Of a DNA stretch of 64,000 nucleotides, positions 194 to 44,377 are shown in pieces (position 1 is the stretch's first letter; each line of letters opens with the position of its first letter). A program made the position numbers and the translations under genes. This stretch comes from Selaginella moellendorffii (lineage: Eukaryota; Plantae; Lycopodiophyta), in assembly GCF_000143415.4 (NCBI RefSeq), contig NW_003314273.1:1-64000 (forward strand), read 5' to 3'. The notes beneath the pieces were generated by a model that was not told where the DNA came from, did no database searches, and saw nothing but the letters and a program-made list of their open reading frames with translations.

Positions 194-3100
194 GTGCTCG
201 AGCAAGGAGAAGATATGAGAGAATTCTATTTGAAGTTCGATCAAGAGCCTCCAATTGTTTTCTCTAGGAGTGTTATAGGAGAGAACTTCCTTTGCAGAAG
301 ATTCAAGCTGAAGCCAGGATCAGTTAGTTTGGAGAATGTATGTCGTGATAAGGGTAATCAGATAGAAAAATCCATTCTTCTCGACAGTGGTGTGGGAGAG
401 AATGGGATTCAATGGGATCTTGATAGATGTACAGGTCAAGAGATTCTAGTTACAGGATCTCCGAAGCGAGGAGAGGAGAGCGCATCAGTTTCACAGCCAA
501 CTGTGCAAAGAGTGAAGGATGAAGTTATTATTCTCTCCAGTGACGAAAATGAAGAAGATGAGCTTCCTGACATAGCTTCCCAGACAAGTAGGTGTGTTCC
601 TTCTGGACCAGTTTTTGAAGTGGTGGATAAGGCATTTCGGCAATCTCGATCATTACGGTTGGAATTGAAGGAGTTCCAGTACATGAGAGGTGAGGAGCTT
701 CCTTCTTCCTATAATGGGAATATATTCTTCGAGTTTCCACCAGCAAGTTCGTCAAGTAGGAAAAGGGGTATGGAAACACGTCTTGATCCACATAATTGGT
801 GCAGAGTAAAGACGACCCACTTCTCTCATTTCGATGGATCTGTGTCCATAGTCCATTGCGGTGGACAGCTTCAGTGTGTCGCTGAGAAATGCATTTCTGA
901 TCATGGCAAGAATATGTGTTTCTTTGAAGGCTCAGCAATCAATCCCCCTAGGCGTGATGAAGTTGCTACAGGATTTAGATGTCGCAAATGCGGGGCAACA
1001 CCTGTGTGTCAAGCATGTTGCGATGCGAAAATGTATTATTTTCTTCCACGGGATGGATGTTTAGGCAGAGCAGCAGTGCATATTGGATACCACCAACACG
1101 CAATTGAGGAAGGAATCCGCTGTGATTCTTTTCGCAATTTGAAGACTGCTGTTACTACAGAGGCTAGGAAGAAAAGTGTAGCAACTCCAAAGTGTGTTCA
1201 ACAGTCTATACTAAAGGACTATGTGGTGGACATATTGTTACAATCTGATAGCCAAAAAGAGTTCACGGAGAATAGCTTGAAGGACCTACTTCGAAATATA
1301 GAACCTATGACAAATTTAAACAGGTATAAAATTAACACTTAACTCTACTTTATCACTAATAACACTCTTTTTTTTTGTAGAATAAAGAACTGGATGCGAG
1401 AAGGGCGAGATGGAAAGCTTCAATCTGGATTGGATGGGATTTTGGAGCTAAAGAGAAAATGTCCCTATGAGTTTATTCATGGGAGCTTATTCGTTGGCCA
1501 AGTGACTTCGAACAATCAACGCCCTTTCATCTTTAAGATGTCTACCCTTGGTCCTGCTTCTGGTGTGGACTTTGTACAACGAATGGATATGGATGGAGAT
1601 GGGGATTTAGCTAATTCCTGGATCCATTTTGATCATATGGAACGAGTTTCAGGCTGGTCAACAATGGGAGCTCATGTTTATGATCACAAGTAAGTGGCTT
1701 TTCATTTTTTAAGGATCTATACCAATTTACATTATAACCATTCCTTTTATAGGTTGCAGTGCAATTTGACTATAGCTATAGCCGAATTCAAAGTTCAAGA
1801 TTTTCAAGCACAAAGCATCTTTTGGACATGTATGTCCGAGGTTGTTGAACAGCGAACCGGGAAGAAACCCAACTTCCGTGGTTTCATGGCAGATGCAGCT
1901 AGTGCTAACTGGTTGGCTGTACGACAAGTATTTGGAGGTGATAAAAGTCAGCCATTACAAGGTAGAGAGAAGAGTTGTGAGTTTCATTGGGCAAAGAGCG
2001 TCAATGAACATTGCCGATGCATCAAGTCTACCTTCCATCACGAGTTCAAGCAGCTTTGTCGGAAATGGATGGATGCACCAACTAAAGAGGAGCACGAGGC
2101 AAAGGCAAATGAAATGCGCATATGGTGGCGTGAAGGAGACAAAGTGCCAATTGAAAACCTTCCACAAATGGAATGCTGGCTTGCATGGTGGGAAGTTCGA
2201 ATGTTTCAGTGGGGTCATTATACTCTCCATGTAAGCTTTCTCTCATTTTCTTTCTTGTCACATTCAAATGTTGCATTTTTTGTAGGATCAACCACTTGAT
2301 GATATTGCACTTACACCAACAATTAATCTCTTTGAGAGCAAACATTGGAGTTGGAGAGCTTCCGAAGCAGGGAAAGGAAAAGTGTCCCTCTATGAAGCTA
2401 CACTCTCCGACCTCACTAGATCTCTTGAGCAATCATCAAAAGCTTTGGCTGCACAGGAAGCAAGGTTTGCTAGTACAGGTCCGAACTTAGACAGGCTTCA
2501 AGAGCGGGTTGGTAGAAGGACAACACCAGCAGCAGGGTCAATGTCCAAGATGGTGGAGGAAGTTGTTGCTGGAACTCCTATGAAATCAAGTTATGAGCCA
2601 CTTGGGGACATGAGAACAGCCCGTATGAAGCGTCGACAAACATTTGATGGGTCAAACATCACTCCTTCTAGCTCTCACCGTCCAGAGTTTGACTACCATT
2701 CTGTTCCACGACACCGGAAAAGAACTAAGGAACATGGAGTGGAGGAGGTGCCAGTTGTTACACAAGTAAGTCCAGTGCCAGAGGTTGAAAAGGTTATTTC
2801 TCGCGAGCCAGTTTCTCGTATCAACTGGGCAATTCGAAGAGTCAGTGCCAAGAGCAATGCACGTTGCTCTGGAATGATTGGGAGTCGAGGTCAGTGTCTC
2901 GCTTTTGTGCGCTCAGGTTGAAGTTCTTCAGTAGTGCCATGTTTCTGGGGCTGTCGAGATCTAGGAGTGAAGGGCCGCCAGTCAAGCTGGATCTACTGTT
3001 GTGGGACTGATGTTACTCATACAAGCCGGATCCACAGCTCAATTATTTTGAAGCCAGATTCTGTGCCAGAGGAGTGGCCAGTTGAGCGAAGCTGCAATCT

Positions 3101-3578
3101 TTTGAAAGAAGAGATTGAAAGTCTGGAGAGAGCAGGTTTCAAGCTAAAGACTTCCTCAAATGTTGCTGTTAGTACTGCTATGCCACCAATATCAACACTA
3201 GACCGGCATACACGACCAGCTAGGAATGGGAAGGCTATACAATACAGGTCTTCCATTTCGAAAGGTGCACAAGAGAAGATCAAGCTGGCAAAAGAGCTAA
3301 AGTGCACAATCACAAAGACAAACTACATCAGTGCTATGGCTAAGGAGTTTATTATTGTGACTGAGTCATCAAAGGGTACAAGCTACACTGTTAAAATCTG
3401 CGAAAATCCATCCTGTACCTGTCCAGATTTTACACAGCGGGAGAACAGGGGAAAGGTATATTTAGCCTGCAAGCACATCTATTACATTTTTATGCAGGAA
3501 CTAAACCAAGATCCTAAGATTGACCATCACATCCACCAGGCAAGCCTTACAGTTGCGGAGCTTGAGAAGTGTTTTTAG
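194..3578 (+). mobile_element. Mutator-like (MULE) transposase gene: GCM/WRKY-like Zn domain, DDE core, C-terminal SWIM finger; 3 introns; one premature stop; 5' end possibly outside window
   Basis: ORFs join in frame across GT-AG introns 1324-1380, 1690-1752 and 2231-2285. MULE-type motifs FMADAASANWLAVRQVF, CEFHW and NLFESKH. SWIM motif CTCPDF...CKH. In-frame TGA at 2919-2921. Confidence 0.8.
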
Positions 3579-3773: not shown

Positions 3774-4055
3774 AGGCTCCGATCTCGGACTTGATCTCAG
3801 ACCCGATCTCGGACCCGACCTCGGACTCGACCTCGGACTCGGTCTCGGACCCGATTTTTGGATCTCAAACTCGGTCTCGAACTCGGTCCCCGAGTCGGCC
3901 TCGGACTCGATTCCGGACTCTATCTTGAACTCGGTCTTTGAGTCGGTCTTGGACTCGATCTTTGACTTGGTCCCATCTGATGAACTCTTTGTCATTTTGG
4001 TCATGCTTTCGGGGTTCCTTTAGCCTACGACACCTCGGCGAGTTGGTTCCTTACA
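3774..4055 (-). repeat. 3' LTR of Z copy 1 (partial, cut at the MULE end)
   Basis: Matches ~9460-9747 plus 11986-11994. Ends CCTTACA next to the PPT. Confidence 0.85.
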
Positions 4056-4840
4056 ACTCCACCACCCATAGAAAAAGTTCGATGCCCACATCGAATGTCT
4101 CTTTTTTATCCTACGACTTGTTGACCATGTCTCCGGGGGCATCCCCCCATTTAGCAGTGTGCCTAAGTTAGCCTCCCCGGCCAAGAGCCCATGACAACGG
4201 AATATAGGTGTCCCTATACTCCTCACCTCACCACGCCCTAGTATGGGGTTGGGACTTGAACCCAGCCTTGCTTTACTAGGGGGTTGGGACTCGAACCCAA
4301 CCTCCGTAGAATATGTCTACGGGTTCGACATCCCCGCAGGGAGTCGGGCGTAGCTCCCTACGCCTGGTCGACCTAGCTAACCCATGCTAATTAGCTTACC
4401 TTCGGCGCACCTTCGGGTCCCAACATATGCCATTGCTCAACTTCTCAAATTGATACTTTTAATTGAACTTTGCATAAGTACATAGAGTTTTGCTTTGCAG
4501 AAATTCCTCCACTAGATCTCGCCTGTTCGCTAGGTTCTCCTCCGGTTCCCATGTTGCTTTATAGTGTGGAAATCCTTTCCACTTCACATGGAACTCTCTC
4601 ACCTCACGTCCTTGTCGCTTGCTCTTGCGCGCAATGAGGATGGCCTCCACTTCGTATTCCTCTTCCCCTTGGATAACCTCAGGTAAAGGTCTTATTTGGT
4701 CCTTGCGAAGTGGATCCTCAAAATATAACTTAAGTAAGTTCACGTGGAACACGGGATGCATCTTCCCCATCTCTCGAGGAAGTCAAAGACGGTAAGCCAC
4801 TTTACCGATTCGAGCCTCAATCTCGTAAGGCCCTGCGAAC

Positions 4841-4892
4841 CTGCTTAAGGAACTCAAGATCAATTCATTTACAGGAATACATGCATTTTTAC
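4841..4892 (-). other. Predicted 52-nt spliceosomal intron in the integrase C-terminal GPY/F module
   Basis: CAAAG|GTAAAA...CCTTAAGCAG|GTTCGCAGGGCCTTAC. Removal gives SRKVTQRFAGPYEI. Same 52-nt insert at 15623-15674. Confidence 0.85.
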
Positions 4893-5309
4893 CTTTGGGT
4901 GACCTTTCGGCTGATCCCACTTGGTAGCCTGAGGTTCTTGGTGTTCAGCCACACCTTCTCCCCAGCTTGGAACTTTACGTCCCGGCGCTTCTGGTTCGCG
5001 TACTTGGTTTGCCTTTGTTGCGCTCGTTCCAAGGAATCCCTCACTAGATTCTAAATGTTGAGTCTTTCTGCTGTAAATGCCTCCACTGCGGGTAGCTCTT
5101 CATGATACTCGGCCACGCCGAGTTCCACAGGACCTTCAATAGCTCGCTCATTGATGACTTCCCATGGACTCACCCCGATACTTGAATGTGGTGAGTTGTT
5201 ATAACACATTCCGCAAGTCCCAAATGACTTACCCAATCGGTCTGGTCTCCCGAGACATAGCATCGCAAATAATCCTCCAACTGCCTATTCACCCTTTCCA
5301 TTTGTCCGT

Positions 5310-5356
5310 CTGTCAAGAAGTGTTAGTGCCACCAAACTTGAGTTAATACCTCATAC
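5310..5356 (-). other. Predicted 47-nt spliceosomal intron in the integrase catalytic core
   Basis: GTATGA...CACTAAC...TTGACAG. Removal gives HPQTNGQMERVNRQLEDYLRCYV. Same 47-nt insert at 16083-16129. Confidence 0.88.
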
Positions 5357-8300
5357 TTGTCTGTGGGTGATAGGCTGTGCTGAATTTCAACTTGGTGCGA
5401 TACTGTTCCAGGAGGGTCCTCCAGAACCTACTAGTGAAGATCTTATCTCGATCTGAGATGATCTCTTCTGGCCTTCCCCTCACTCGAACCACTTGTTCGA
5501 AGAACAATTTCGCCACACCTTCCGCATCCACTTCCGTTGTGGTGGGTATGAAATGTGCCATTTTCGAAAATCAGTCCACCACCACGAATATCACATCAAA
5601 CCCCTCGCTTGGGGGAAGTCCCGTGATGAAGTCCATCGTAAGACATTTCCATGGACAATCTGGAATTGGGATGCTTTGCAACAAGCCCCCACTAGCCTTA
5701 GTCACGGCTTTGACCTGCTGACATGTTCGGCATGTCTTTACATAGTCATGGACGTCCTTAGCCATATCTGGCCAATAGTACTTCCTCTTGAGTAAGCCCA
5801 TCGTCTTGGGCACTCCGCCGTGTCCCGCAAGAAGTCTGTCATGACACTCTTCTAAGGCTACCTTCCTTAGTTCCCCTTCTGGAACATACACCCTCGTTTG
5901 CTTGTAATAGATGAGTCCGTTGCGTTCCGCATAGCCCGTTTTCTCTTCCGTTGGCAGCTCACTTCTCTGGTGAGCTTCTTGTGCCTCTAGATTCCTCAGC
6001 AACACTTCTTGTGCTAGACCATTGTTCTCATATGCTGTCCGCACATCGTCCCAGAAGGTTGCTGTTGCGCTGGATATCGCCAACCTCAAGCTCGCTTTTC
6101 GACTTAGCGCATTTGCCACGATATTGCTCTTCCCAGGCTTGTACAGAATCTCGCAATCAAACTCGGCCAAGGCATTGGCCCACCGACCTTGTTTCCCTCT
6201 CAGGTCGGGCTGTGACAAGAAGTGTTTTGTTGCCACATTGTCCGTGTAAACTTTGAAGTGTCTCCCAAGGCAGTGTCGCCACTCCTTGAGTGCCTTGACC
6301 ATCGCGAACAATTCCTTCTCGTGGGCAGGCCACTTCCGTTGAGCCTTGTCCAACTTCTTTGAGAAGAACGCTACTGGATGGTTGTCTTGCTTCAAAACTG
6401 CGCCCAACGCAAAGTCCGAAGCATCCGTGTCTACACCAAAATCTGGTAATGCCAACACGAGAGCCTTCCTCAACTTCCCTTTGAGGTGGACGAATGCCGC
6501 CTCGCATTCTGCTGTCCATACCATCTTCCCTTTTCCTGTTTGGTCCGTTAAGGGCAGGGCTACTCTCGAATAGTGTCTGATAAACTTTCAATAGTAGTTG
6601 TATAGCCCCAAGAACACCCTCAACTCATGTACATTCAATAGTCGCTCCCATTCCTGGATCGCTTGGACCTTCTCCGGGTCCACCTTGAGCCCGTCTTGGC
6701 CCACCACATGCCCGAGAAACTTTACCTCTTGTTGAGCAAAGTCACATTTGCTCTCTTTAGCATATAGTTTGCGTTCCCTTAGTTTCTCAAACACCTTCGC
6801 CAAGTGTTCGGCATGCTCCTCTAGCATCTCGCTATAGATCAGGATGTCGTCGATATAGACGACCACAAAGTGATCCAGATAGGGTACAAAGATGTGGTTC
6901 ATCAGCGCCGAAAACGTTGCCGGCGCATTGCATAGCCCGAAGGGCATCATCAGAAACTCAAAGCTCCTATACCTCATTCGACAGGTTGTGTTCTCGACAT
7001 CTTCCTCGGCTACCCTGATCTGGTAGTATCCTAACCTTAGGTCAATCCTCGAGAAGTATTTTGCCTTTCCCAACCTATCGAACAGGTCCTCAATTCTTGG
7101 CAAAGGGTACTTGTTCTTCTTTGTATACTTGTTGAGCAACCGATAGTCTATGCACATGTGCATAGAACCATCTTTCTTTTTCACAAATAACACCGGCGCC
7201 CCATACAGCGACTTGCTCAACCTAACATACCCTTTGTCCACCAACTCCTCTAGTTGGCACTTGAGCTCCTTGAGTTCTTTTTCGTTCAAACGATAGGGGG
7301 GACGAACCACCGCCTCAGCACCCTCGACCAGCTCAATCTTATATTCTATCGGTCGTGCGGGGGGCAACCCCGCCGGTAGCTCCTCCGGCATGGTATCCTG
7401 GAATTGGTTCAACACCCGCTGGATCACCAAAGGTACTTCTTCCGTTCCTGTCTTTTTGTCACTCTTCACCGAGAGTAAGCACAAAAAGGCTGCCTTAGTT
7501 TCTTTGGTGAGTTGTCCTCTCGTGGACACCAGATTTAAGCAGGAATCTTTGGTCTTGCTTTGCCCTACCTTTAGATCCTGGGCCTCCACCCTAGATCTTC
7601 TTCCTTGGGCATTCGCCAGTACCACAAGGTTCCTACCTTGTCCATGCAGGGCTACCACGAACCGATTAAACCAATCCATTCCGAAGATCACATCAAATCC
7701 CGCCATGTTTAACACGGTGAAATCCATGTTTACTTTCTATGTCCCTACTTCGACTCTCACTTGTCGAAGTACCTCATCGGTGCTTTGGCTATCTTGAACA
7801 AACTCTATAGTCCTTGGTTCGCCTAGCCGCTACACCATTAGTCCGGCTTGCCGGACTATGTCTGCAGCCACAAAATTATCCGAAACACCCGTGTCAATAA
7901 GGATCTTAACAAAGCTACCTCCGAGCTTCCCTCGGAGGGCTAGTAGATGTCGCGAACAACTCTCTACCAAAGTTGCTCGTGTAATGAGTAACTTTGAGTT
8001 AGGGACTGGATCACATACCTCAGTTTGGACTTCACTCGACTTGATGGCCATATTAGCTCTGGCCTTCTTCGGGTAGGGACATTCCCTTGAAAAGTGTCCC
8101 GCTTCACCGCAGTTGTAGTATACGTTGTTTCCCACGTTGCTATATGACTTGACCTTCTTATCCATGGGTTTGTCTTTTTTCGCTTGACTCCCCCACGTAC
8201 TCGCTTGCTGGCCACCGGATTTGCCTTTCCGGAACCCCAAGGACTCATTCTTAGAGAAATTCTTCTTGAATTTCCCCCTGCTATACGTTCCCCTTGGTTT

Positions 8301-9258
8301 GGCCCCTTTGCTAAACGTGGATCCCGACCCCGTCGTGTTCCCCTTTCGCAGGTTATCGTTGAAATGCACCTTGATGGCTGCATCCAACGCTTCCTTATAG
8401 TTAGTCGGGTTCTACCGCATCACCTCACCGCGAGCCCAGGTTTGCAAACCTGATATGAAGGCATGGAACACATCCATATCCCCCATGTCCATGACCAGTA
8501 TCCTCTTTGCCATGAACCCATTCACATATTCTTGGATGGTTCCAGTCTGTTTCAGCCTACTCAGCTCATCTCTCAGATGCAGAGTGGCATTTGGAGGAAC
8601 GTATGTTGCGCGAATCCTCGCCTTCATCATGTCCCAAGTGGCCACCGGTCCTTCGTTGGCTTCCGTCGTTCTCCACCAAGACTTGGCATTATCTGCCAAG
8701 TATGGTTTTGCACATGGGACCTTCTCCGAGCTCGGTAATCGCAATGCTTGGAAGTAGTCCTCCATATCGTAAAACCAATCCTCCACCACCTTATAGTCAT
8801 TCACTCCCTTGAAGACCGGTGGGGGCTTTGGTTTGTACTTGGGAATTGCTTGAGGGACTGATTCTACTTCGGTCTGTTCGACCTTGTTTGGTTCTGCCTC
8901 AGTCCCTGCCGAAGGGTCCGCACCTTCTGCGCTGCCAGCATCCGCAGTCTTTCTCTTTTTCTTCCGCTTCTCGTCATGCTTTAGCTTGCGTACGAGAGTC
9001 TCCAGCAGGGCATTGGTCTGTGCCAACTGTCCTAGCACGTCCAATCGAGCCTTGGACGACCGAACCTCGCCACCGGACTCCTGTTTGGAAGTTTCCTCAC
9101 TAGAGCCCTCCTCATGCAAGGATTCCTCATCCATAGCCTCCTGTTCAACCGAAGGCTCCAGCTTCGGCGGAGGTTCCGTCTCTGCCTGGGTTCACTTACG
9201 CCCTGCCCTTGCCATCTCCCAGCAATCCGCCTCTATCCTTCGCTAGAACTGAGGAAAA

Positions 9259-9271
9259 GGCTCCGATACCA
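9259..9271 (-). promoter_or_regulatory. Primer binding site (initiator tRNA-Met type) of Z copy 1
   Basis: Minus strand TGGTATCGGAGCC, 3 nt from the LTR end. Confidence 0.9.
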
Positions 9272-9747
9272 AATTGTAAGCCACAAATTTTTCCTTTCCA
9301 ATTTGCCAGCTTACCTCGTCTATCCGACCAACACTGCCTTGGCTTGTGCTAAGGGAGACGCACGCTTTGGGCTTTCACCCCTTGACCCGTATTAGTATTT
9401 GGACTTAGTCTTTGGCTCGATCTCGGACTCAATTTCGAATCCGACTTCGGATTTGGTCTCGGACTCGATCTCGAACTCGATCTCAGACTCGATCTCGGAC
9501 CCGACCTCGGACTCGACCTCGGACTCGGTCTCGGACCCGATTTTCGGATCTCGGACTCGGTCTCGAACTCGGTCTCGAACTCGGTTTCGAACTCGGTCCC
9601 CAAGTGGGCCTCGGACTCGATTCCGGACTCTATCTTGAACTCGGTCTCCGAGTCGGTCTTGGACTTGATCTTCGACTTGGTCCCATCCGATGAACTCTTT
9701 GTCATTTTGGTCATGCTTTTGGGGTTCCTTTCACCTCGGCGAGTTGG

Positions 9748-10746
9748 TGTGAGACACAAAATCCCTAGGCCCCAAAGTGGAGCCGGAAGGGCGCCACATG
9801 GTAGTGGCCGAAGCGAGAGCCAAACGAGTGTAACACGTTTGGACCAAAAGCTCCGACTTGAAAAGTCAAGAGCGGGAGTGGAACTCCCAACGAAGTGCTC
9901 GAGGAACGAGCACGAAGTGAGCAAAAAGTGAGGCTCCAAAAAGGGACCCAAAAGGACCAACACATGACACGTGGAAGTGTCCGAGATGGACTCGAGTTGG
10001 AGTCCGAAGTGGAGTCCGAGATGGACTCGAGTTGGAGTCCGAAGTGGAGTCCGAGATGGACTCGAGTTGGAGTCCGAAGTGGAGTCCGAGATGGACCCGA
10101 GTTGGAGTCCGAAGTGGAGTCCGAGATGGACCCGAGTTGGAGTCCGAGATGGAGTCCGAGATGGACCCGAGATGGAGTCCGAGATGGAGTCCGAGATGGA
10201 GTCCGAGGTGGACCCGAGATGGACCCGAAATGGAGTCCGAGATGGAGTCCGAAATGGAGTCCGAAATGGAGTCCGAGATGGACCCGAGATGGAGTCCGAA
10301 GTGGAGTCCGAGATGGACCCGAGTTGGAGTCCGAAGTGGAGTCCGAGATGGACCCGAGTTGGAGTCCGAGATGGAGTCCGAGATGGACCCGAGATGGAGT
10401 CCGAGATGGAGTCCGAGATGGAGTCCGAGGTGGACCCGAGATGGACCCGAAATGGAGTCCGAGATGGAGTCCGAAATGGAGTCCGAAATGGAGTCCGAGA
10501 TGGACCCGAGATGGAGTCCGAGATGGAGTCCAAGATGGAGTCCGAGGTGGACACGAGATGGACCCGAAATGGAGTCCGAGATGGAGTCCGAGATGGAGTC
10601 CGAGATGGAGTCCGAGATGGACCCAAAATGGAGTCCGAGATGGACCTGAGATGGAGTCCGAGATGGAGTCCGAGATGGACCCGAAATGGAGTCCGAGATG
10701 GACCTGAGATGGAGTCCGAGATGGAGTCCGAGATGGAGTCCGAAGT

Positions 10747-10841
<95 letters not shown>

Positions 10842-11980
10842 TCGGGACCGAGACCGAGACCGAGGCCGAGGCCGAGACCGAGGCCGAGGCCGAGCCCGAG
10901 TCCGAGTCCGAGTCCGAGTCCGAGTCCGAGTCCGAGTCCGAGTCCGAGTCCGAGTCCGAGTCCGAGTCCGAGTCCGGAGCCTGAGAGGGTGAAAGCCCAA
11001 AGCGTTCGTCTCCCAGACCCTGGGGGGTTTGGTGAGCTCCAAAAGTATAGTAGGGGGAGGACTGCAGTGGAGCCAGTTTGGCCAGGAAAGGCCAGTTTGG
11101 CCCAGGAAGGCCGGACCCAGTGTTGGGTGATGAGCTGCCCACTGGGAAGTCCAAGACTAGAGTGAACACAGACCGACAAGCGGGGTAGCTTGGTGAAGTG
11201 TTCAAGAGCCGGCTCTAGTTCCCCCGGGAGATCGACTGGCCGATGCTCCCAGTCCAAGTGTGGGTGGCACTACCTACTTGGATACCTGGCGTGGCTCAAC
11301 GGAACCCGCTCTAAGCCCATGGCTAGAGCACCCAAGGGCAGAAGGCGAGGAGAGTACCCAGGTGGCTCGCGTAAGGCCACGGTGTTCCGAAATGTTGTCC
11401 CAAAGGCCCAGACTGTGGAAAGGAAGAGGAGCAGTCCTATTGGGGTAGTGACCAAGGACACAGTCGTGTGGTGAGGAAGTCCCAGAGAACCGTGGGACTT
11501 AGTGGTCGGGCCTGTGGGTCTCGATCCAGTGGCAGTGTTGGCAAACACGGCCAGGGGCAGAAAGGGACTTAGTGGGGACTGACAGAGGGATATTGGGGAA
11601 GGCTATTCCCCTTGTCAGTGGGCATCCTAAGGATGCTAAGGAGTGGATCTGAGATGACCACTCACGGATGGTTTGCCTAGTCTTGGAGAGCCAAGATGGT
11701 GATGCAAGTGGTATTGGACTACCAGTGTGGCAAAGGTGATTGGGCATGGCCTTGGCGTAACGGGCTGCTATGTCGGTTGTACCTTTGAGTGTCGGTCATG
11801 GGATTGGACACGTGGAGCACTTGGACCAAGTGCAAATGTTGAGTGGCATGGATGCCATTCTCGGGGCTAGCAAGTCCCAAGTCCTGGATTGGACTTATGG
11901 AGGTTGTGAATGAGACTCCTCCAAGTGGTCAGAGGTGTGGTTAAGTGACTAAAGTAGAATGGAAAATTTAGTCGTTTACA
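9748..11980 (+). mobile_element. Solo LTR of a related family, in opposite orientation to Z
   Basis: TG...CA ends with 5-bp TSD GTTGG (9743-9747, 11981-11985). Shares the repeat type and GGGTGAAAGCCCAAAGCG motif with Z LTRs in reverse complement. Confidence 0.88.
9978..10980. repeat. CpG-rich 6/12-bp tandem array (GAGATGGAGTCC, GAGACC, GAGTCC) inside the solo LTR
   Basis: Directly visible. Produces long low-complexity ORFs in several frames. Confidence 0.95.
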
Positions 11981-14900
11981 GTTGGTTCCTTACACAGGGT
12001 TCTTTTGTAGATGGGCTAGGATCTGATGGAACATTAGGAGGAGGTATCGGTGGATCTGTAGGTGGTATCAATTGTTCTTAATCCCTTTGTCAAAGTGTTT
12101 TAAGTACTAAATATGCACAATTTTTGGAGGATTAGCTTGTTGGATGTCATATTGAACCTCATAAACTTGTGGTTCAACTTGCCGTAACACCTAATACAAT
12201 CCTTTCCACTAAGAAAGGAGCCCCTTTAAATAAACCACGTACCATAAGATGGGGAAAACGGACTAACACCAAGTTATCCATTTTGTACTCTGTAGGTGGA
12301 TGATGATAGGAGTTGTAGTGCTATTGTTATCTTATTTGTATGTGGTTTAGGTGTTTGGCAGACTCTATTTGGACAAATGGAAGAATGCTCATCAAATATT
12401 AATCCCACAACTTAACATCAGCAGATCGTGGCAATTGCGAAGGTAAACTAGGAGTTTATATGGTGAAACACTAATAAAACTCTGCACCCTTGTAACATAT
12501 GCATACTGAAGAGATGGCAAATAACTATCTCAATCCAAATGCTGAAAGTTCACGTACTTCACGATCATCCCTTTGAACTTCGAACGAGTTGTTTCACCAA
12601 ACCATTTGATTATAGATGATAAGCACTTGTGAAAGTGTGATGTATCCCCAACCAAGATGTCAAAACATGAAATGCCTTAGCCATAAATATGGGATTATTA
12701 TCCAAAGAATCTGCTCCGAACAAAAATGCTAGAGCACCAATTTCCACCCAACAAATCAAGTAATCAGAAGCAATAATAATATACTCATTGTCAACAGTTG
12801 ATTATGAAAAAAGTCCCATAAGATCAAACACCACCAACTCAAATAAATGGGAAACTGCAATTGACTCAAACTGTCCTTTCGCAACACAAGGGGGAGTATT
12901 ACGAGCTTAACACCAAATGCAGCTATGTACATGTTGGATAACATCACGTCCTATCTCCAGTCAATAGAAAAACCTGTGCAATTACTTAGAATAGGAAAAT
13001 CATAATAGGCATGGAGAAACCATGTAATAAAGATTAAAGGCACCACTAGCCCTAAATGATCATTAAGATATGTCCCCACAAAATAAAGAAAGCCATCTTC
13101 AAGACAATATCATGAATATGAATGCCTAAATGGCAAATTATCAGTAAGTGATGCAAAATTCTCAAACCCTTCTCAAAGTTTTCAAATCCATGGCTCAATC
13201 TTTTGAGCCTCATAAACCTCATCAAAAGAAGGTAGGTCTTTCTCTGTACCTTATGGATACTGAATATCAAGTATAGTAACCACCAATAGCATAGAATCCT
13301 CGTCTAGAAAATCCACAAATGCTGGAACAATAGGCTCTTCAGAAACATGATAAAAGAGTGAAGAAGGAAGAGGAGCCTGAGAAAGGGCATCAGCATCAGG
13401 TATAAAACTCCCTGAACAATGAATAACATCAAAATTATATATTTGAAGCTTCAAAGCTCATTGAGTAGTATGACCAATCAGGTTCTTCTGCTTCAAAATG
13501 AAGTAACGGCAGCATAATCACCTTTTAGTAACATCCAAGAACCATGTAGATGTGTATGAAGTTTTTCAAAACCCCAGAATGCTGTTAAATACTCATTCTC
13601 TATCATAAAGTAGTTCACCTCTGCTGGTTTTAATGTACAACTAATGTATACAATGGGATAACATTGACAAAGAACATTTGGGTTCTTTTGCATCAACACA
13701 TTTCCAAAACCAATATTAGAAGCATATTTTTCCTTTCCAATTGGCCAGCTTAGCTCATTTATCCGACAAACACTGCCTTGGCTTTAGCTAAGTTCCCTCA
13801 CCAAGGTTCCCGCCTATTGTACCAGCTCTTACTTGGTTTTACTTGGTTTCAACTACTCACTGCACAAGCAATGGAGCGTTAGCTATCCATCCACGGATTC
13901 CCAAATCTCTCCCAATCCTCCTCTTTGGGTTGGATTAAACTTAAGGTTCGGCTACACTCCCTGCAGACACAAGCAGCCAAGCACATTAAGCCTCCAGGTT
14001 TCTAACATCCCTTGGTATAGCAAAACTTGATTATGGGACCCTTTAAATCCCAAGCCTTGGGTGCAACATTTGCTTTAGGATATGGGGCGAAACACCATAG
14101 CCTAACGCTTAGTATGGGTACCTCTACCCCCCCCCCCCCCCACTTTCATTCCAAAGGGAAGGCCCAGGCCCCTAAGAAGGGCAAAGACCAATGAGTCATA
14201 AGGTACTCAAGTGGGGCACCACTCTACATGAGCCAGGAGCACTGTAGTCAGTTTCCTTTCCGAGAGTGGGAGCTGCTCTTGAGCACTTCCTTGGGTGGCC
14301 CCTCCAGCACCACCCGAGTCCATGCTCACTCCCACTCAAGGCCCTTCGGCCCTAGTTTCAACCTCAAGTTAGTTTGGAAGCACCACTGGAGAGTTCCTTC
14401 AAGACTAGTTCCTAGACCTCACTAACCCTACTATACTTTTTGGAACCCCTTGCAGCCCCCCCCCCACCCCTGGGAGACACATGCTTTGGGCTTTCACCCC
14501 ACGACCTGTATTGGTATTCGGACATGGTCTCGGACTCAATCTCAGACTTGATTTTGAACTCGACTTCGAACTCGGTCTCGGACTCGATCTCAGACCCGAT
14601 CTTGAACTTTGTCTTGGACTCATCTCGGACTCGATCTCGGACTCGATCTCGGACTCGGTCTCGGACCCAATATCGGATCTCGGACTCAGTCTCGAACTCA
14701 GTCTCGAACTCGGTCTTGAACTCGGTCTTGGAGTCGGTATCGGACTCGATCTCGAACTCAATCTCATTTGATGAACTCTTTATTATTACAGTTGTGTCTT
14801 CGAGAATCCTTTAGCCTTTGACACCTCGGGGAGTCGATTCCTTAAAACTCCACCACCCATAGAAGAAGTTCGATGCCTACATCAAATGCCTGTTTTTAAT

Positions 14901-15622
14901 CCTACAACTTATTAACCATGTCTCTAGGGGCATCCCCCCACTTAGCGGTATGCCTAAGTTAGCCTCCTCGGCCAAAAGCTCATGACAACAGAGTATAGGT
15001 GTCCCTACATCCCTCCCCTCACCATGCCCTAATATGGGATTGGGACTTAAATCCAGCTTTGCTTTACTAAAGGGTTGGGACTCAAACCCAACCTTCGTTA
15101 AATACATTTACGAATTCGACATCCCCGCGGGGAGTTAGGCATAGTTTTCTATGCCTGATCGACCTAGCTAACCCATGCTAATTAGCTTACCTTTGGTGCG
15201 TCTTCAGGTCCCAACATATGCAATTGCTCAATTTCACAAATTGATACTTTAATTGAATTTTGCATAAGTATATAGAGTTCTGCCTTGCAGAAATTCCTCC
15301 ACTAAATCTTACGCATTTGTTAGGTTCTCCTTTGGTTCCCATGTTGCTTCATAGTGCGGAAATTCTTTCCACTTCATATGGAACTCCTTCACTTCATGTC
15401 CTTGTTGCTTGCTCTTGCATGCATTGAGGATGGCCTCGACTTCGTATTCCTCTTCCCCTTGGATAACCTCAGGTAAAGGTCTTACTTGGTCCTTGCGAAG
15501 CAAATCCTCAAAGTACGACTTGAATAAGTTCACATGGAACACTGGGTGCATCTTCCCCATCTCTCGAGGAAGTTGAAGGCAGTAAACCACTTTATGCCTC
15601 AATCTCATAGGGCTCTGCAAAC

Positions 15623-15674
15623 CTACTTAAGGAACTTAAGATCAGTTCATTTCTAGGAATACATGCATTTTTAC
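15623..15674 (-). other. Predicted 52-nt integrase intron (copy 2)
   Basis: CAAAG|GTAAAA...CCTTAAGTAG|GTTTGCAGAGCCCTAT. Restores KLTQRFAEPYE. Confidence 0.85.
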
Positions 15675-16082
15675 CTTTGGGTCAACTTCCAGCTGATCCC
15701 ACTTGGTAACTTCAGGTTCTTGGTGTTCAACCACACCTTTTCCCCAAGTTGGAACTCTACATCCCAGCACTTCTAGTTCACGTACTTAGTCTGTTTTTGT
15801 TAAGCCTGTTCCAAGGAATCCCTCACTAGATTCCAAATATTGAGTCTTTCTGCTGTGAACACCTCCACCGTGTGTAACTCTCCATGATACTCAGCCACGC
15901 TGAGTTCCACAGAACCTTCAATAGCTCGACTTCCCATGGACTCACTTTGATACTCAAATTTGGTGAGTTGTTATAGCACATTTCTGCAAGGCCCAAATGA
16001 CTTACCCAATCAACTTGGTCTCCCGAGACATAGCATCGCAAATAATCCTCCAGCTGTCTATTCACCCTTTCTGTTTGTCCAT

Positions 16083-16129
16083 CTGTCAAGAAGTGTTAGT
16101 GCCCTCAAACTTGAGTTAATACCCAATAC
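16083..16129 (-). other. Predicted 47-nt integrase intron (copy 2)
   Basis: ACAG|GTATTG...CACTAAC...TTGACAG|ATGGACAA. Restores the canonical HPQTDGQTERVN. Confidence 0.9.
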
Positions 16130-18150
16130 CTGTCTGTGGGTGATAGACTGTGCTAAATTTCAACTTGGTGTAATATTGTTCCAGAAGAGTTTTCCAGAAC
16201 CTACTGGTGAAGATCTTATCTCGATCTGAAATGATCTCCTCTAACCTTCCCTGCACTCAAACCACTTGTTCAAAGAACAACTTCGCTACACTTTCCACAT
16301 CCACTTCTGTTGTGGTGGGTATGAAATGTGCTATCTTTGAAAATCAGTCCATCACCACGACATCAAACCCCTCACTTGGGGGGAGTCCTGTGATGAAATC
16401 CATCGTAAGACATTTCCACGAACGATCTGGAATTGGGATACTTTGTAACAAGCCCCCACTAGCCTTAGTCATGGCTTTGACCTGCTGACATGTTATATAT
16501 GTCTTTACATAGTTTTGGATGTCCTTAGCCATATCTGGCCAGTGATACTTCCTTTTGAGTAAGCCTATCGTCTTGGGCACTCCACCATGTTCTGCAAGAG
16601 GTCTGTCATGATACTCTTCTAAGACTACCTTCCTTAGTTCCCCTTCTAGAATATACACCCTCGTTTGTTTATAATAGATGAGTCCATTATGTTTCGTATA
16701 GCTTATTTTCTCTTCCGTTGGCAGCTCACCTCTTTGGTGAGCTTCCCGTGCCTTTAGATTCCTCAGCAACACTTCTTGTGTTAAACCATCATTCTCATAT
16801 GCTGTCTGCACATTATCCCAAAAGGTTGTTATCACACTAGATATCACCAACTTCAAGCTCACTTTTCGACTTAGAGCATCCGCCACGATATTGCTCTTCC
16901 CAGGCTTGTACAAAATCTCACAATCAAACTTGGCCAAAGCATTGGCCCACTGACCCTGTTTCCCTCTCAGGTCGAGCTATAACAAGAAGTGTTTCATTGC
17001 CACATTGTCTGTGTAAACCTTGCAATGTCTCCCAAAGTAGTGTCTCCACTCCTTGAGCACCTTGACCACTGCAAACAATTCTTTCTCGTGGGCAGACCAC
17101 TTCTGTTAAGCCTTGTCCAACTTTTAAAAGAAGAACGCTACTGGATGGTTGTTTTGCTTCAACACTATGCCCAATGCAAAGTTTTAAGTATTCGTTTCTA
17201 CTTCAAAGCCCTTACTAAAATTTGGTAACGTCAACACAGGAGCTTTTCTCAACTTCCCTTTGAGGTGGACAAATGCAGCCTTGCATTCCACTGTCCATAC
17301 CATCTTCCCTTTTCCCATTTGGTTTGTTAAAGGCAAGGTTACTCTCGAATAGTGTTTGATAAACTTTCGATAGTAGTTGCATAGCCCCAAAAATGCCCTT
17401 AACTCATGTACATTCGATAGTCGTTCCCATTCCTGAATTGTTTGGACCTTTTCAAGGTCCACCTTGAGCCCATTTTTGCCCACCACATGCCCAAGAAACT
17501 TTACCTCTTGTTAAGCAAAGTCACATTTGCTTTTTTAAGCATACAGCTGGTGTTCCCTTAATTTCTTAAACACCTTCATCAAGTGTTCAGTATGTTCCTT
17601 TAGTGTCTCACTATAGATCAGGATGTTGTCAATAGAAACGACCATGAAGTGATCCAGATAGGGTACAAAGATATGGTTCATCAATGCCGAAAATGTTACC
17701 GGTGCATTGCATAACCCAAAGGGCATCACTAGAAACTCAAAGCTCCCATACCTTGTTCGATAGGTTGTCTTCTTGACATCTTCCTTTGCTACCCTAATCT
17801 GGTAGTATCCTGACATTAAATCAATCCTCGAGAAGTATTTTGCCTTTCCCAACATATTGAACAAGTCCTCAATCCTTGGCAAAGGGTATTTGTTCTTCTT
17901 TGTATATTTGTTGAGCAACCGATAGTCTATGCACATGCGTATAGAACCATCTTTCTTTTTCACAAATAACATCGGCACCCCATACGGTGATTTGCTCAAC
18001 CTAACATATACCCTTTGTCCACTAACTCTTCTAGTTGGTGCTTGAGCTCCTCTAATTCCTTTTCGTTCAAACAATAAGGTGGACGAACCATCGCCTTAAC
18101 ACCCTTGACCAGCTCAATCTTATGTTCTATCAGTTATGCAGGGGGCAACC

Positions 18151-18538
18151 CCGCCGATAGCTTCTTTCGCATGGTATCTTGGAATTGGTCCAACACCCAC
18201 AGAATCACTAAAAGTATTTCTTCCGTTCCCGTCTTTTTGTCACTCTTCACCGAGAGTAAGCATAAAAATGCTGCTTGGTTCCTTTAGTGAGTTGTCCTCT
18301 CGTGGACACCAGGTTTAAGCAGGAGTCTTTTGCTTTACATTGCCCGCCGATAACTCCTCCGGCATGGTATTCTGGAATTGGTCCAACACCCACTGGATCA
18401 CTAAATGTACTTCTTCCATTCCTGTCTTTTTGTCACTCTTCATTTAGAGTAAGCATAAAAAAGCTGCTTTAGTTCCTTTAGTGAGTTGTCCTCTCGTGGA
18501 CACCAGATTCAAATAGGAGTCTTTTGCCTTATATTGCC
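18151..18538. repeat. ~190-bp tandem duplication within the Z copy 2 PR-RT linker
   Basis: ccgccgata...gcatggtat...gtggacaccag...attgcc occurs twice in tandem and once in copy 1. Confidence 0.8.
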
Positions 18539-21500
18539 CTACCTTTAGATCTTGAGCCTCCACCCTAGATTGTTCTCCCCGGGCATTCACCAGTACCACA
18601 AGGTTCCTACCTTGTTCATGTAGGGCTACTATGAACCGATTGAACCAATCTATCCCAAAGATTACGTCAAATCCCGCCATGTTCAACACGGTGAAATCCA
18701 TGTCTACTTTCCATGTCCCTACTTCGACTCTCGCTTGTCAAAGTATCTCATCGGTGCTTTGGCTACTTTGAACAAACTCTATCGTCCTTGGTTCACCCAA
18801 CCACTGCACCATTAGTCCAGCTTGCCGGACTATGTCTGCAGCCATAAAACTATCCAAAGCACCTGTGTCAATAAGGATCTTAACAAAGCTACCTTCGAGC
18901 TTCCCTCGGAGGGCTAATAGATGTCGCAAACGACTCTCTACCAAAGTTGCTCGTGTAATGCGTAACTTTGAGCTAGGGATTGGATCACATACCTTAGTTT
19001 GAATTTCACCTAACTTAATGGCGATATTGGTTCTGGCGTTCTTCAGGTAGGAACATTTCCTCAAAAAGTGTCCCACTTCACCGTAGTTGTAGTATACGTT
19101 GTTTCCCACGTTGCTAGCACACTTGATCTTTTTATCCGTGGGTTTGTCTCTTTTTGCTTGATTATCCCACGTACTTGCTCGTTAACCACCGGATCTGCCT
19201 TTCTGGAACCCCGAGGACTCATTCTTAAAGAAACTCTTCTTGAATTTCCCTTTGCTATATGTTCCCTTTGGTTTGGCCCCTTTGCTAAACGTGGACCCCA
19301 ACCCTGTCATGTTCCCCTTTCGCAAGTTATCATTGAAATGCATCTTGATAGCTGCATTCAACGCTTCCTTGTAGTTGGTTGGGTTCTAACGCATCACCTT
19401 GCCGCGAGCCTAGATTTGTAAGCTTGATATGAAGGCATGGAATGCATCCATATCACCCATATCCGTGACAAGTATCCTCTTTGCCATAAACCCATTCACA
19501 TACTCTTGAATGGTTCCCGTTTGCTTCAGCCTACTCAACTCATCCCTTAGGTGCAGAGTAGCATTCAGAGGAACGTAAGTCGCATGGATCCTCGCTTTCA
19601 TTATTTTAAGTGGCCACCGGTCTTTCGTTGGCCTCTATTGTTCTCCACCAAGATATGACATTATCTGCCAAGTATGGTTTTGCATATGGGACCTCCAAGC
19701 TCGGTAACCGCAATGTTCGAAAGTAATCCTCCATATCGTAAAACCAATCCTCCACCATTTTATAATCATTCACTCCCTTGAAGACCAGTGGGGGCTTTGG
19801 TTTGTACATGGGAACTACCTGAGGGACTAATTCCACTTCGCATAAACTCAGCATCAGGCATAGAACTCCTCAGGCAATGAATAACATCAAAATCATATAT
19901 TTGAAGTTTTAAAACCCATCGAGCAATACGACCAATCAGGTTCTTCAATTTTAATAATGAAGTAATAGTAGCATAATCACCTTTTAGTAACATCCAAGAA
20001 CTATATAGATGTGCATGAAGTTTTTTGAAACCACAAACTGCTGTTAAATACTTATTCTCTATCATAGAGTAGTTCACCTCCGCTGGTTTTAATGTTCAGT
20101 TGATATATACAATAGGATGGCACCGACCAAACACACTCGAGCTCTTTTGCATCAACACACCTCCAAAACCAATATTAGAAGCATCCACGTGCAAAATGAA
20201 AGGTCAAGTGTAGTCAGAATATACCAAAATCGAAGGAGTTGTTAATAGCTCTTTGAGATCCATGAATGCCCACTCACAGTTATCAGACAAAATAAAAGAC
20301 GACATTAATGATTTCAACAATGCTCACAACAGTGCAGTGCAATCAAAAAGGTCATCCACAAAACGACTGAGATACTGCACCTTGCCCAAGAAGCGTTGCA
20401 CGTCATTCACACACTTTAGAGTAAGAAACTTTAGAACATCCACAAATTTGTCAAAATCAACTTGCAAACCCTTACGAGAAATAAAGTACCCAAGATAATC
20501 GTGTCCTTGGACCCAAACACGTACTTCAACCACTTTAGCTTTAAACCAATATCTGTAAGCCACAAATTTTTCCTTTCCAATTGGCCAGCTTAGCTCATTT
20601 ATCCGACAAACACTGCCTTGGCTTTAGCTAAGTTCCCTCGCCAAGGTTCCCGCCTATTATACCAGCTCTTATTTGGTCTTACTTGGTTTTAGCTACTCAC
20701 TCCACAAGTGTCATAAATGCGACTTTGGGTATCGAAAGATATTTGTCAGCCAGTCCTTACGAACATACTCTCCTTACTGCCACGATGGTAGGAGGTTGGT
20801 ATTGCTAAACCCTTTATTAGTCCCTCTTGTTCAAGTGTTAGTAAATTGGATTTTGCATTTGTACTTAGCCGGACGAGCATAAGGAAGGAATTCCTAAGTG
20901 TCTATTTAGCCAAGCATACTTGGCCTGGCTTTTTAGTTCTCTTTTGCTTTGTCTTGCACTGGCTTAGCAAGAACCCTCATGTATTGAGACTAGTCCCTCA
21001 ATATCGCTGGATGATAGCTTACTGTGTTTGCCAAACACTCTCGCTATCACGCCCTTTGTGTTAGTCTCATTTCGGTCCCAAATGCTATTTATGGAAAGTG
21101 TCTAGATTCACTCATTTGGCATATCTATGGAATGTAGAGGTCGGCCTAAACACAATGGTGTTCATCCCGTGTCTAAATTCGCAATCTAGCACCATTCCAT
21201 ATTTAGTAAGTTTCGAGCTTGTCCCAGAGACTAACTCCTGATACTAAGGGAGGTTTGGGGTGAAAGCCCAAAGTGTGTGTTCCTCAGGGGGGGGGGGGCT
21301 CCAAATGTATAGTAGGGATAGTGGTTAGAATGCATGTTCGACCACTTGAAACATTAGTTTGGCTCTCGCTGGGCTATGTCGCTCCTTGTTCTATGTCCGG
21401 CTTGGGTTTAAGCCCAAGCTCCATGTTGCTCTAGTCAGTGGGGTACCTTCCTCCTCACGTTAGGCCACCGGTATGCCAAAATTGTGCCAAACTCTGTCTG

Positions 21501-22961
21501 ACACCATTTTGCGTGCAGGTGTTGGATATGAGGAGCTGGTGCTCGTGGGATTGTACCGGATCCTCGTTTCATAGCGCAACAGGCTTGGAGTTCGGCTCCA
21601 AATTCAAGTGCGCTACATTTGGTATCAGAGGAATTGTCTTAGCAATTCCTATCCAACTTTTGTCGGATTTTCTAACTCAAGTTGCATATGCAGAGACTTT
21701 TCTAGTAGATCTGAAGCGATTTGTGTAAAATTAGTTGGATTGCACCATTTGGTAAGAATGTTGTATGCATGTTTAGTTACTGACAGAGACATGCATGCAA
21801 CTAGCGGGATGGTGAAGAGGAATTGTGCTGATGACGCTGAAACCTCTAGACAGGTGAATCGAGAGGAGGAAACTTCTGCTAGAGATGCTACGGAAGAGGT
21901 TGAGGCTGAATCAGAAAAGGACGAGCCAGATGTTGCAGCACTACAGCATACAGCTCAGGAAGTTGAGATCGAGAATTTGCGAAGGGAGATTCACAAATTG
22001 AAGAAGGAGAACAAGAAGAGGAAGAAAGAAGCTGAGGCAACTAAACCAGCTAAGCTTAAGCAACTGGATTCCTCCTCAAGTTTTAAGGACGATGAAGTTC
22101 TGCAGCCACCCTCGGTTGCATGAGTTTCAAAGTTTAAGCCTCCGAAACCACCCAACTTCAAAGGCATGCGGGACTATCAAGTTTTGGAAGACTGGGTCTA
22201 CGATATGGAAATTATTTCATAGCGGCAGACGTAGATGATCGTACGAACATTGCGTGCGTGCAGTCCTTTCTCATCGATTATGCCAAGACTTGGTGATGAC
22301 AGGTGTGTGCTTAAAAAGGGTAGACTAGAAGTTGACCAAGATGCGGTCTCGTATCCGTAAGGAATACTTGTCGGATGATCTTGGTCTGAGACTTCGCACG
22401 GAGTTGCGGCGGTTAAAGCAGTGAGGGGACCTCATGCATTACATTAATGTGTTTGCTTAGAAGCGCATTATGATTGCAAATATGAGTGACGAAGATGCAC
22501 GGAGTTATTTTTTGAAGGGTTTAAGTTCACTTTCTCGCAATGAGATTTTGAAGTTTAAGCCGAAGACATACTTGGAGTGTAAGGAGGCAGTGCAGCAAGT
22601 TGCCTTTAATCACTCACTCATGGAACAATATCAACAACCGTATGTTGGTAACTCAGATAAGAATAGGAATTCTAAGAATAAACAAGATGATCGGAAACAG
22701 AGGGTGGAAAGCAAGTTCCACCCTGGAGGCTCACAAGCAACAGTTAACAAAGGTGGTGGTGGTTGGAGACCACCAGCAGCTTCTTCTAATCCTAGGCCCT
22801 CTATTCCTCCTCCTGGTGGGTACAAGTAGCAGCAACCTACAAAACCTACTCCTAGTGGAACGGGTAGTGTGGGTCATTGCTTCCATTGTGGAGAGTCGGG
22901 ACATAGATCCTCAGAATGTCCCAACAAGCATAAAACATAGTCTCGTGTTAATGTCATGAGG

Positions 22962-23668
22962 TGTAGCGCACGTTATCTCTCTCCCCTTAAACCAACTGGA
23001 AAAGGGGTAATTGCTTGATGAGAGAGCCCTTAATGGCTATTTTATCCCTATTTATCCCCCAAAGTTCCAAGGATCCATAGTGACAGTATATCCAAATCTC
23101 ATCCTATGATCAATGCGCTACACTCACCCCCCCTTTAAAGATGTCAATGTCTTTATTGACTATTGACTAACAACCTCTACTGAGCCCTTTAGAGATGTCA
23201 ATGTCTTTATTGACTATTGACTAACAACCTCTACTGAGCCAAGGGGAACTAACACCTCCATTTTCGCATTGAATCTACCAATCCTTTCATTGTGTAGACT
23301 AGCTATTCCATGTGAGACAACTAGTCATTCACCTGTACCGTAGTCCCACGGACGAAGACCTTCGTCTGGAACTCCACAAGAAGAAGGATATACACATGGA
23401 TGCCCAATATGTACAATTTTCAAATTTAGGGGTAGGAATATACCTTGCTCATATTTTTAAGTAGCCACTAATCAATGGGAATCGAACCCGTGCCATTTGC
23501 TTCGATACCAACTTATCTCTCTCCTCTTAAGCCAACTGGAAAATGGGCAATTGCTTAATGAGAGAGCACTTAATGGCTATTTTATTTTATCCCCATTTAT
23601 CCCCCAAGGTTCCAAGGATTCACGGTAATAGTATATCCAAATCTCATCCCATGATCACATATGTTACA
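22962..23668 (-). mobile_element. TRIM (non-autonomous miniature LTR retrotransposon), 707 bp
   Basis: ~160-bp LTRs at 22962-23122 (TGTAGCGCA...TGCGCTACA) and ~23512-23668. PBS TGGTATCGAAGC and PPT AGGGGGGGTGAG on minus. TSD TGAGG. Confidence 0.9.
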
Positions 23669-24903
23669 TGAGGGAAGATGGTGGTGGTGAAGCTGAAGGG
23701 GTTGACGAGTTGGTCAATGCAGACTATGAGGAAGAGGAGGTGAGTTACTTTCGTTGCTTTCCTCAAGCTTTTCTCGCAGTCAATGCAAACACTAATCCGT
23801 TGATGTATCTGGTAGGCTTTGTCCGCGGACATTGAATCCAAGTGATGATTGACACGGGAGTTATGCATAGCATGATATCCGAAAACTTAGTTAAGTTGTT
23901 AGGATTAAATGTTGAGCAAATGTCACCTATACACTTCCGGTTTGCAGAAGGTGGGCAAGTAGCCAGAAAGTTTGTGAGTGATGTTCCAATAAAGATATCC
24001 AAGTGGAAAGAAAGAGTGGACTTGGTAGTGTTAAAGATACTAAATTTTTAGATAGTGTTTGGTATGGACTTCTTCAACAAATATATAAAAGGGATTTATG
24101 GTGCTAAACAAAGTTGTATCACATTAAACTTAGAAGGACGACCTAATGTGTCCTTCCAGTTGCAAAAAAGTTCCTCAAAGGATTGGGATGCTAAGTTCCT
24201 AATTGCAAGGGCCGTTCAAAAAGCAGCTATGAGGGGATGTCAGACCTTTTGGGTTCAAGTGATGGAAGCTGAGAGTGTTGGTGACTCAATTTGAATCGGT
24301 GACGGGGTTGATCCTGTACCAAAGAAGATATTAGAGTTGTTGGCAAGGAATCAGGATATCTTCCCGAAGGATTTGCCACTAGGGCTACCTCCTAGCCATG
24401 AGGTTGATCATTGGATTGAGGTTATTCTGGGTTCTAAACCACCTACGAGAGCTCCATATCAGTTGAACATCAAAGAGATGGCTGAACTCAAGAAGCAACT
24501 CACAGAACTTTTTGACAAAGGTCATATCCAATCAAGCAAATCACCTTATGGAGCGTCGGTCCTTTTCGTTATGAAAAAGGATGGAATCATGAGGATGTGT
24601 ATTGACTATCAAGCACTCAACAAGGTCACGGTTAAAAACAGTTATCCTTTGCCATGCATTGATGACTTGTTTGACCAACTCTTAAAGGCTAAGTATTTTA
24701 CGCGACTCGATTTGCAGTCCGGGTATCATCAGATACGGGTGGCGGATCAAGATGTGGAGAAGACAGCCTTTAAGGCTCGGTACGGATCTTATGAGTTCCT
24801 TGTCATGCCGTTTGGGTTATGCAATGCTCTAGCAACGTTCAACACTATGATGGATAGAATATTCGGAGATTATTTGGATGCATTTGTTGTCCTATATATC
24901 GAC

Positions 24904-32790: not shown

Positions 32791-32866
32791 GAGACAACGG
32801 CCGGATTTGTGTTTAATTAACGGCAGTGACGCAGTTTAGCAATTTTAATTAGGTCGAAGCGGAGCT

Positions 32867-44200: not shown

Positions 44201-44377
44201 CCCGTCGAAGATCCAAGCCCGAACTCGCAGTGACAAGCAAAGCAGCACAGGGACTCCTAGAGGCTCGGGGATATTATATTCTAAACAGCACGCACGGATT
44301 GATTGGAGTCAAGTCATGTCACACAAGCAGACGAGACGATGGACTCTGGATATTAACACGTAAGGTGGTACACAGGA

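Follow-up and report, generated by a model that had tools for sequence, protein, structure and literature searches.

Retroelements are expected to shed introns since they are copied through RNA. An intron-like insert within the catalytic core of the integrase of such an element therefore raises the question of whether it is a spliceosomal intron and how it could have been kept. The insert in question, 47 nt long, was found in a stretch of 64,000 nt of spikemoss DNA (Selaginella moellendorffii, contig NW_003314273.1, positions 1 to 64,000), which is called the window here. We conclude that it lies in a decayed copy (copy 1) of a family of spikemoss Ty3/gypsy chromoviruses, in which a single gag-pol frame carries three GT-AG introns (A, B and C), the 47-nt insert being intron B.

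The original prediction, made from the letters of the sequence, placed the insert in an LTR retrotransposon, and the surroundings agree with this assignment. Copy 1 (~3780-9730, minus strand) is a decayed gypsy element with TG..CA ends of the LTRs, both of which are truncated, a primer site and a polypurine tract (Table 1). The Pfam domains follow the gypsy order of Gag, CCHC knuckle, aspartic protease (weak), RT, RNase H, integrase zinc finger, rve and chromodomain, and the position of the chromodomain at the C terminus of the integrase assigns the element to the chromoviruses. Ty3 Gag-Pol was the sole match of the integrase piece among solved structures. The primer site at 9259-9271 matches a query motif which we take to be that of tRNA-Met. 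The best protein matches of the element reached 50-53% identity over RT-RH-INT. Two protein searches with the RH-INT frame gave no match above 51% identity, and none above 63% was obtained when the integrase piece was used in a profile search; no protein member of the element's own family was therefore found in those searches. The Atlas search returned generic Gag clusters only. In a FastTree phylogeny of 85 rows (the 84 of 120 hits that were long enough and the window element, named clade references being absent), the element was located on a long branch in a set of 42 rows (support 98) together with seed-plant elements and five unnamed ones. The label Galadriel, which we attach to the element presumptively, comes from likeness, as the tree contained no named Galadriel reference. 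The tRNA-Met primer site, the single ORF and the chromodomain are traits of the Galadriel clade (supplement 5 of PMC6317226), although they are common to other clades too.

Table 1 Features of the two element copies in the window (^ marks a splice junction; X1 and X14 are two of the aligned runs)
Feature	Position	Strand	Remarks
Copy 1: 5' LTR remnant	9275..9730	-	CA end at 9275; internal deletion; outer end approximate
Copy 1: primer binding site, tRNA-Met type	9259..9271	-	3 nt after LTR end
Copy 1: gag exon, 399 codons, likely ATG to donor A	8019..9215	-	capsid domain and CCHC knuckle; stops in copy 1
Copy 1: intron A, 157 nt, GTATGT..GCTGCAG	7862..8018	-	open in frame; holds protease DTG motif; skipped in X1 contig
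Copy 1: rest of protease, RT, RNase H, integrase zinc finger, first part of core	5357..7861	-	in gag's frame; several stops in copy 1
Copy 1: intron B, 47 nt, GT..CACTAAC..CAG, phase 1	5310..5356	-	inside integrase catalytic core; skipped in X1 contig and one X14 read
Copy 1: integrase exon with catalytic Glu	4893..5309	-	decay frameshift and one stop in copy 1
Copy 1: intron C, 52 nt, AG^GTAAAA..AAGCAG^GT, phase 2	4841..4892	-	splits integrase core from GPY/F motif and chromodomain
Copy 1: last exon, GPY/F motif and chromodomain	4459..4840	-	Pfam Chromo PF00385, E 1.2e-15
Copy 1: polypurine tract	4056..4067	-	adjoins 3' LTR start
Copy 1: 3' LTR	3780..4055	-	TG start at 4055; truncated near 3780; 12-nt repeat array
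Copy 2, more decayed	15250..19840	-	about 86-87% identical to copy 1
Copy 2: intron A	18836..18992	-	145/157 identical to copy 1
Copy 2: intron B	16083..16129	-	43/47 identical to copy 1
Copy 2: intron C	15623..15674	-	47/52 identical to copy 1
Near-complete LTR, ~1.1 kb, 3' side of copy 2	13707..14846	-	inner end approximate

Inspection of the sequence bore out the letters of the insert that had been predicted (a GT donor, CACTAAC and the acceptor TTGACAG): on the minus strand, the segment 5310-5356 opens with GTATGA, contains CACTAAC and closes with TTGACAG. It is positioned in phase 1 of the codon which follows HPQT. If the insert is skipped, copy 1 reads HPQTNGQMERVN (the reading across the 47-nt skip is also given as HPQTNGQMERVNRQLEDYLR), and if it is retained, the reading HPQTSMRY ends at an in-frame TAA. 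The codon of the catalytic Glu occupies 5296-5298 (minus strand), and the second catalytic Asp and this Glu are exactly 35 residues apart only without the 47 nt. The proposals that the insert interrupts the integrase core ahead of the catalytic Glu of DD35E and that translation of unspliced RNA stops within it thus proved correct, and the stop inside intron B together with the D-35-E spacing supports the further proposal that active integrase comes only from spliced mRNA. The junction ACAG^ATGGAC, also predicted, exists in copy 2 (16083-16129) but is not the junction of copy 1 itself. When the bases of intron B were shuffled (200,000 trials, fixed register), GT..YAG ends appeared in 0.27% of the trials, and these ends with a CTRAY word in 0.037%. 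The GT-AG ends, the branch-like word, the presence of the insert in two copies and the removal of exactly 47 nt in sequence data (X1 contig and one raw RNA read of X14) support the assignment of intron B to U2 spliceosomal introns, as had been suggested.

The sequence data came from four runs (X1, X14, X15 and X16), which were aligned to 4300-9250. X1, whose status as RNA is a guess, was covered entirely and provided three contigs; X14 is recorded as RNA and ~12% of it was sampled, as was the case for X15 and X16. The X1 contigs are ~95% identical to copy 1 and show skips of 47, 52 and 157 nt. Introns B and C are both skipped in one contig of 2500 nt and intron A in another. Support from recorded RNA is thin: one of the nine aligned raw reads of X14 skips the 47 nt with 45 letters on its short side, which is below the three-read threshold for listing; no junction was detected among the four aligned reads of X15, and X16 provided no reads. 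Two of the X1 joints have CT..AC ends on the plus strand, and the 47-nt joint, in which four letters are ambiguous, was reported with an offset of one base. It would fit GT..AG if the donor of the transcribed copy is preceded by G, as is the case in copy 2. We interpret the skipped forms as RNA that was transcribed from intron-bearing copies and then spliced. Among the contigs, which drop rare forms, and the listed joints, there was no form that retains intron A and no completely unspliced RNA. As the A-spliced contig extends ~760 nt into RT, a fully spliced RNA coding only for Gag could be the source of all three joints. X1 differs from copy 1 at 40 listed sites and at 171 more; at the 40 listed, it has the letter of copy 2 in 22 cases, a letter of its own in 16, a third letter in one and a gap in one. 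X1 therefore represents a third lineage of the same family.

Intron C combines GT-AG ends with a branch-like word (TTGAT in copy 1, CTGAT in copy 2), as is characteristic of U2 introns, and its precise skip was seen in the X1 contig only. Its retention leads to an immediate TAA. Introns B and C can be considered host-sized because introns of 52 and 80 nt are present in two acyltransferase genes of the window. These tandem genes (42780-45752, minus strand) belong to the BAHD type, and an acyltransferase encoded in the window shares 97-99% identity with a protein named from Selaginella moellendorffii, which points to this species as the host. Intron A is of a different kind. Its splicing shifts the frame, and Gag then ends with ..EVQTET-stop, one codon past the junction. 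No working element could have started from DNA with this 157-nt skip, which deletes the protease motif and shifts the frame; the skip must therefore have been made by splicing. Intron A, which was absent from the original prediction, is the likelier switch between Gag and Pol. The tuning of integrase levels and the mimicry of host genes that were put forward in that prediction are hypothetical. Short words are shared by the introns: introns B and C have a complementary word of 8 nt in common (p 0.03 by shuffling, in a post hoc test that was one of six comparisons), which is broken in copy 2, and introns A and B a direct word of 8 nt near their donors (p 0.08). These words are possibly a signal for coordinated retention and possibly a product of chance.

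All three introns also occur in copy 2, and their GT and AG ends are intact in both copies. Stops and frameshifts are found in copy 1 as well as in copy 2, neither has two whole LTRs, and these are the only two genomic copies seen. A distance of 11 kb separates them; both have the same orientation and belong to a rearranged cluster of repeats. A further LTR with unrelated flanks is located at 28622-29592; no target-site duplication was recognized around it by eye, and in copies 1 and 2 the outer LTR ends are missing. Within the cluster, the LTR end of the family is joined at two places (13390-13868 and 19848-20708) to a piece of RNase H from another gypsy element. In copy 2 this junction takes the place of the 5' portion of gag, and 193 nt within the PR-RT linker of copy 2 (18163-18356) are duplicated in tandem. 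A long array of 12- and 35-nt repeats at 9900-11050, related to the LTR array and in the opposite orientation, is probably the LTR of a related element. The window also contains a different gypsy element (21620-28439, plus strand), which is interrupted by other sequence and has a separate tRNA-Met primer site at 21620; its integrase part is not in view. A SWIM-finger, transposase-like gene (194-3578, plus strand; weak Pfam SWIM, E 0.049) has an in-frame TGA near 2919, and short GT-AG introns are predicted at three places in it, near 1324-1380, 1690-1752 and 2231-2285. Finally, 32849-33925 and 46229-47578 form an inverted pair of related genes of no known identity, with 86% DNA identity.

The divergence of the two copies was used to evaluate their history. 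The dN/dS ratio between copies 1 and 2 was 0.25 over 1383 codon pairs (0.25 downstream of intron B and 0.22 downstream of intron C), compared with 0.36-0.55 in neutral simulations (n=100). Of 56 transversions, 26 were silent, where 16% would be expected (p 1.6e-7), and of 476 transitions, 225 were silent, where a methylation-context model predicts 185 (p 1e-4). Constraint was similar in every domain between Gag and the chromodomain, these two included. Since the divergence is biased towards silent changes and the introns are present in both copies, the lineages were under selection after their split and kept all three introns. Judged by these sequence comparisons, the introns were likely inherited via active lineages, and unspliced RNA would have been the template for reverse transcription, as two intron-bearing copies diverged under purifying selection. 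The identity of introns between the copies (90-92%) exceeds that of exons (86-89%), which we do not read as selection because short introns are lower in G+C and decay is mostly deamination.

The relatives of the element show what preceded the inserts. HPQT and GQxE are separated by exactly one residue in all 94 motif-matching polyproteins among 120 homologues (26 did not match the pattern). By a strict pattern, 124 of the 150 profile-search hits are contiguous at site B, and most of the others have substitutions or cut ends. Among 15 distant DNA loci, from which a locus with a weak 23-residue match (L017) was omitted, 14 are contiguous at site B and one ends there, while 12 have a single frame through site C. 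The uninterrupted relatives show inserts B and C to be derived; both were likely acquired at MAG^-type sites in the lineage of the element. Two integrase fragments (P0321 and P0420) diverge directly past HPQT; they are protein-only sequences, and both a frameshift and an intron at this site fit. The junction repeats comprise 5 nt at intron B of copy 2 and 4 nt at intron C, and inverted ends typical of introners were not apparent by eye at introns B and C. A search of the window for the motif of intron B hit the two copies and nothing else. A single metagenome match to this motif (L001) was rejected as a chance match of 22-26 nt next to a bacterial gene.

We propose that RNA of the element would be sorted in three ways, that is, as unspliced RNA, as RNA which has kept intron A and lost B and C, and as RNA from which A has been spliced. 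The unspliced form would be packaged and reverse transcribed. The form with intron A and without introns B and C, an mRNA whose existence we infer, would code for Gag-Pol with a working integrase, whereas RNA without intron A would provide Gag alone, intron A thus setting the excess of Gag as in copia elements. Introns B and C would persist since new copies derive from unspliced RNA. As a side effect, packaged RNA would be unable to code for active integrase, which would separate template from messenger. A packaging preference for unspliced RNA is suggested by analogy with barley BARE, the packaged pool of which is reported to be uncapped, non-polyadenylated, unspliced and distinct from translated RNA (PMC3735527). 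As a whole explanation, a chromovirus with three introns and three-way sorting of its RNA appears to us probable. We regard as evenly balanced the more demanding claim that this is an autonomous LTR retrotransposon which gained host-type introns inside a catalytic domain, kept them through reverse transcription and runs a programme of three isoforms (genome, Gag-Pol and Gag) with packaged RNA barred from making active integrase.

Other explanations of the same data have to be weighed. The active masters of the family might have no introns in the integrase, either originally or after regeneration from spliced RNA; the intron-bearing copies would then belong to a side branch that depends on mobilisation in trans, and the contigs with skips would be transcripts or DNA of the masters. 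Reverse transcription of spliced RNA is indeed expected to erase introns, which is the principle of reporters (PMC12786077), and the transcribed copy, ~5% off copy 1, is known from the sequence of X1 alone, a run called RNA by guess. This explanation is nevertheless unlikely, since both intron-bearing copies were under purifying selection downstream of the introns, which is hard to explain if they were not translated. Moreover, X1 also has the frame-breaking 157-nt GT-AG skip, a mark of spliced material, and its agreement with copy 2 at 22 of the 40 listed sites places it inside the same small family.

Purifying selection would fit equally well a domesticated or immobile gag-pol gene which gained introns as host genes do and was then duplicated as DNA, so that intron-bearing RNA need not have been reverse transcribed. 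The copies 11 kb apart in the same orientation, the rearranged cluster, the locally duplicated junction and the lack of a target-site duplication among the ends inspected are also in line with such an origin. We consider it quite improbable because the LTR, primer site and polypurine tract have been retained, an additional LTR is present at 28622-29592 between unrelated flanks, constraint is similar from Gag to the chromodomain and the sequences fall into no fewer than three lineages (copy 1, copy 2 and the transcribed one). That the inserts are neutral junk in dead copies, removed by cryptic splicing, has been largely refuted and is highly improbable: although both visible copies are dead and transposon RNAs are often spliced at canonical sites (PMC13547354), at two independent sites the frame becomes exactly that of the homologues once the inserts are removed, the chance of the signals is below 0.3% each, and both inserts are older than the split of lineages under selection.

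An integrase active site assembled by splicing requires a strict separation of messenger and template. The presence of introns across copies can serve as a measure of how frequently spliced RNA is packaged and tests intron loss driven by reverse transcription, and the family would allow intron gains to be dated in a known coding context. Annotation based on ORFs would score such families as dead. If the more demanding claim made above is true, the family represents a natural system for studying the choice of unspliced RNA by a retroelement, the gain of introns and the means by which introns avoid loss mediated by reverse transcriptase.

Plant LTR elements are generally without introns, Ogre and EVADE being the exceptions named in a 2025 review (PMC12786077). 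The original prediction had held that the known cases of splicing in LTR elements do not involve small introns in the integrase, and our search found no counterexample in the literature covered. No case of an intron in the integrase of an LTR element is described in the accessible parts of PMC2864245, PMC7730604, PMC13547354, PMC13148404 and PMC7175516, and no report of one was found in the literature covered, which did not extend to Repbase, subscription journals and the element table of PMC6317226, so that prior annotation is possible. Galadriel-like chromoviruses (PMC6317226; sister group Galahad, PMC2864245) resemble our element in the single gag-pol frame, the tRNA-Met primer site and the aromatic residues of the chromodomain. 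In contrast to it, relatives are uninterrupted at both integrase sites, and the survey summary gives no intron for the clade (PMC6317226). Penelope-like elements keep introns after retrotransposition, and one was inferred in a Selaginella family (PMC8557442). Spliceosomal introns thus survive copying through RNA in them as well, but they are not LTR elements and have neither integrase nor a virus-like particle. In foamy virus, Pol is translated from spliced RNA (PMC7828637), and integrase hence comes only from spliced RNA distinct from the packaged genome, as proposed here; the splicing, however, removes gag upstream of pol and does not join pieces of a catalytic domain.

The closest parallels are found among plant elements. 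The gypsy element Ogre has a single intron of about 274 bp between protease and RT (PMC6317226, PMC4408406). As in our element, full Pol requires splicing of some transcripts and the intron persists in genomic copies, whereas here two introns of 47-52 nt are found inside the integrase of a chromovirus, one of them within the D-35-E core. An Ogre-type non-coding intron between PROT and RT is absent, as PR and RT share one frame and nothing is skipped between them. Splicing that generates shGAG is known in Ty1/copia elements, namely EVD of Arabidopsis (PMC5580714, PMC12786077), BARE1 of barley (PMC3735527) and Tyran and Varan of sunflower (PMC7730604); no intron in the integrase of copia elements is described in the accessible portions of these articles. 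Splicing of intron A is analogous, since it drops protease sequence, shifts the frame and ends Gag. The element described here has, unlike these, the gypsy domain order, which sets it apart from Ty1/copia, and its A-spliced form continues at least 760 nt into RT. On the early polyadenylation that belongs to the copia strategy, the A-spliced X1 contig with its ~760 nt of RT gives no verdict, contigs being unable to reveal RNA ends. For Arabidopsis gypsy elements, no such conserved splicing was reported in the accessible part of PMC5580714. The spikemoss element works like Ogre and like the copia elements with shGAG splicing, and is a member of neither.
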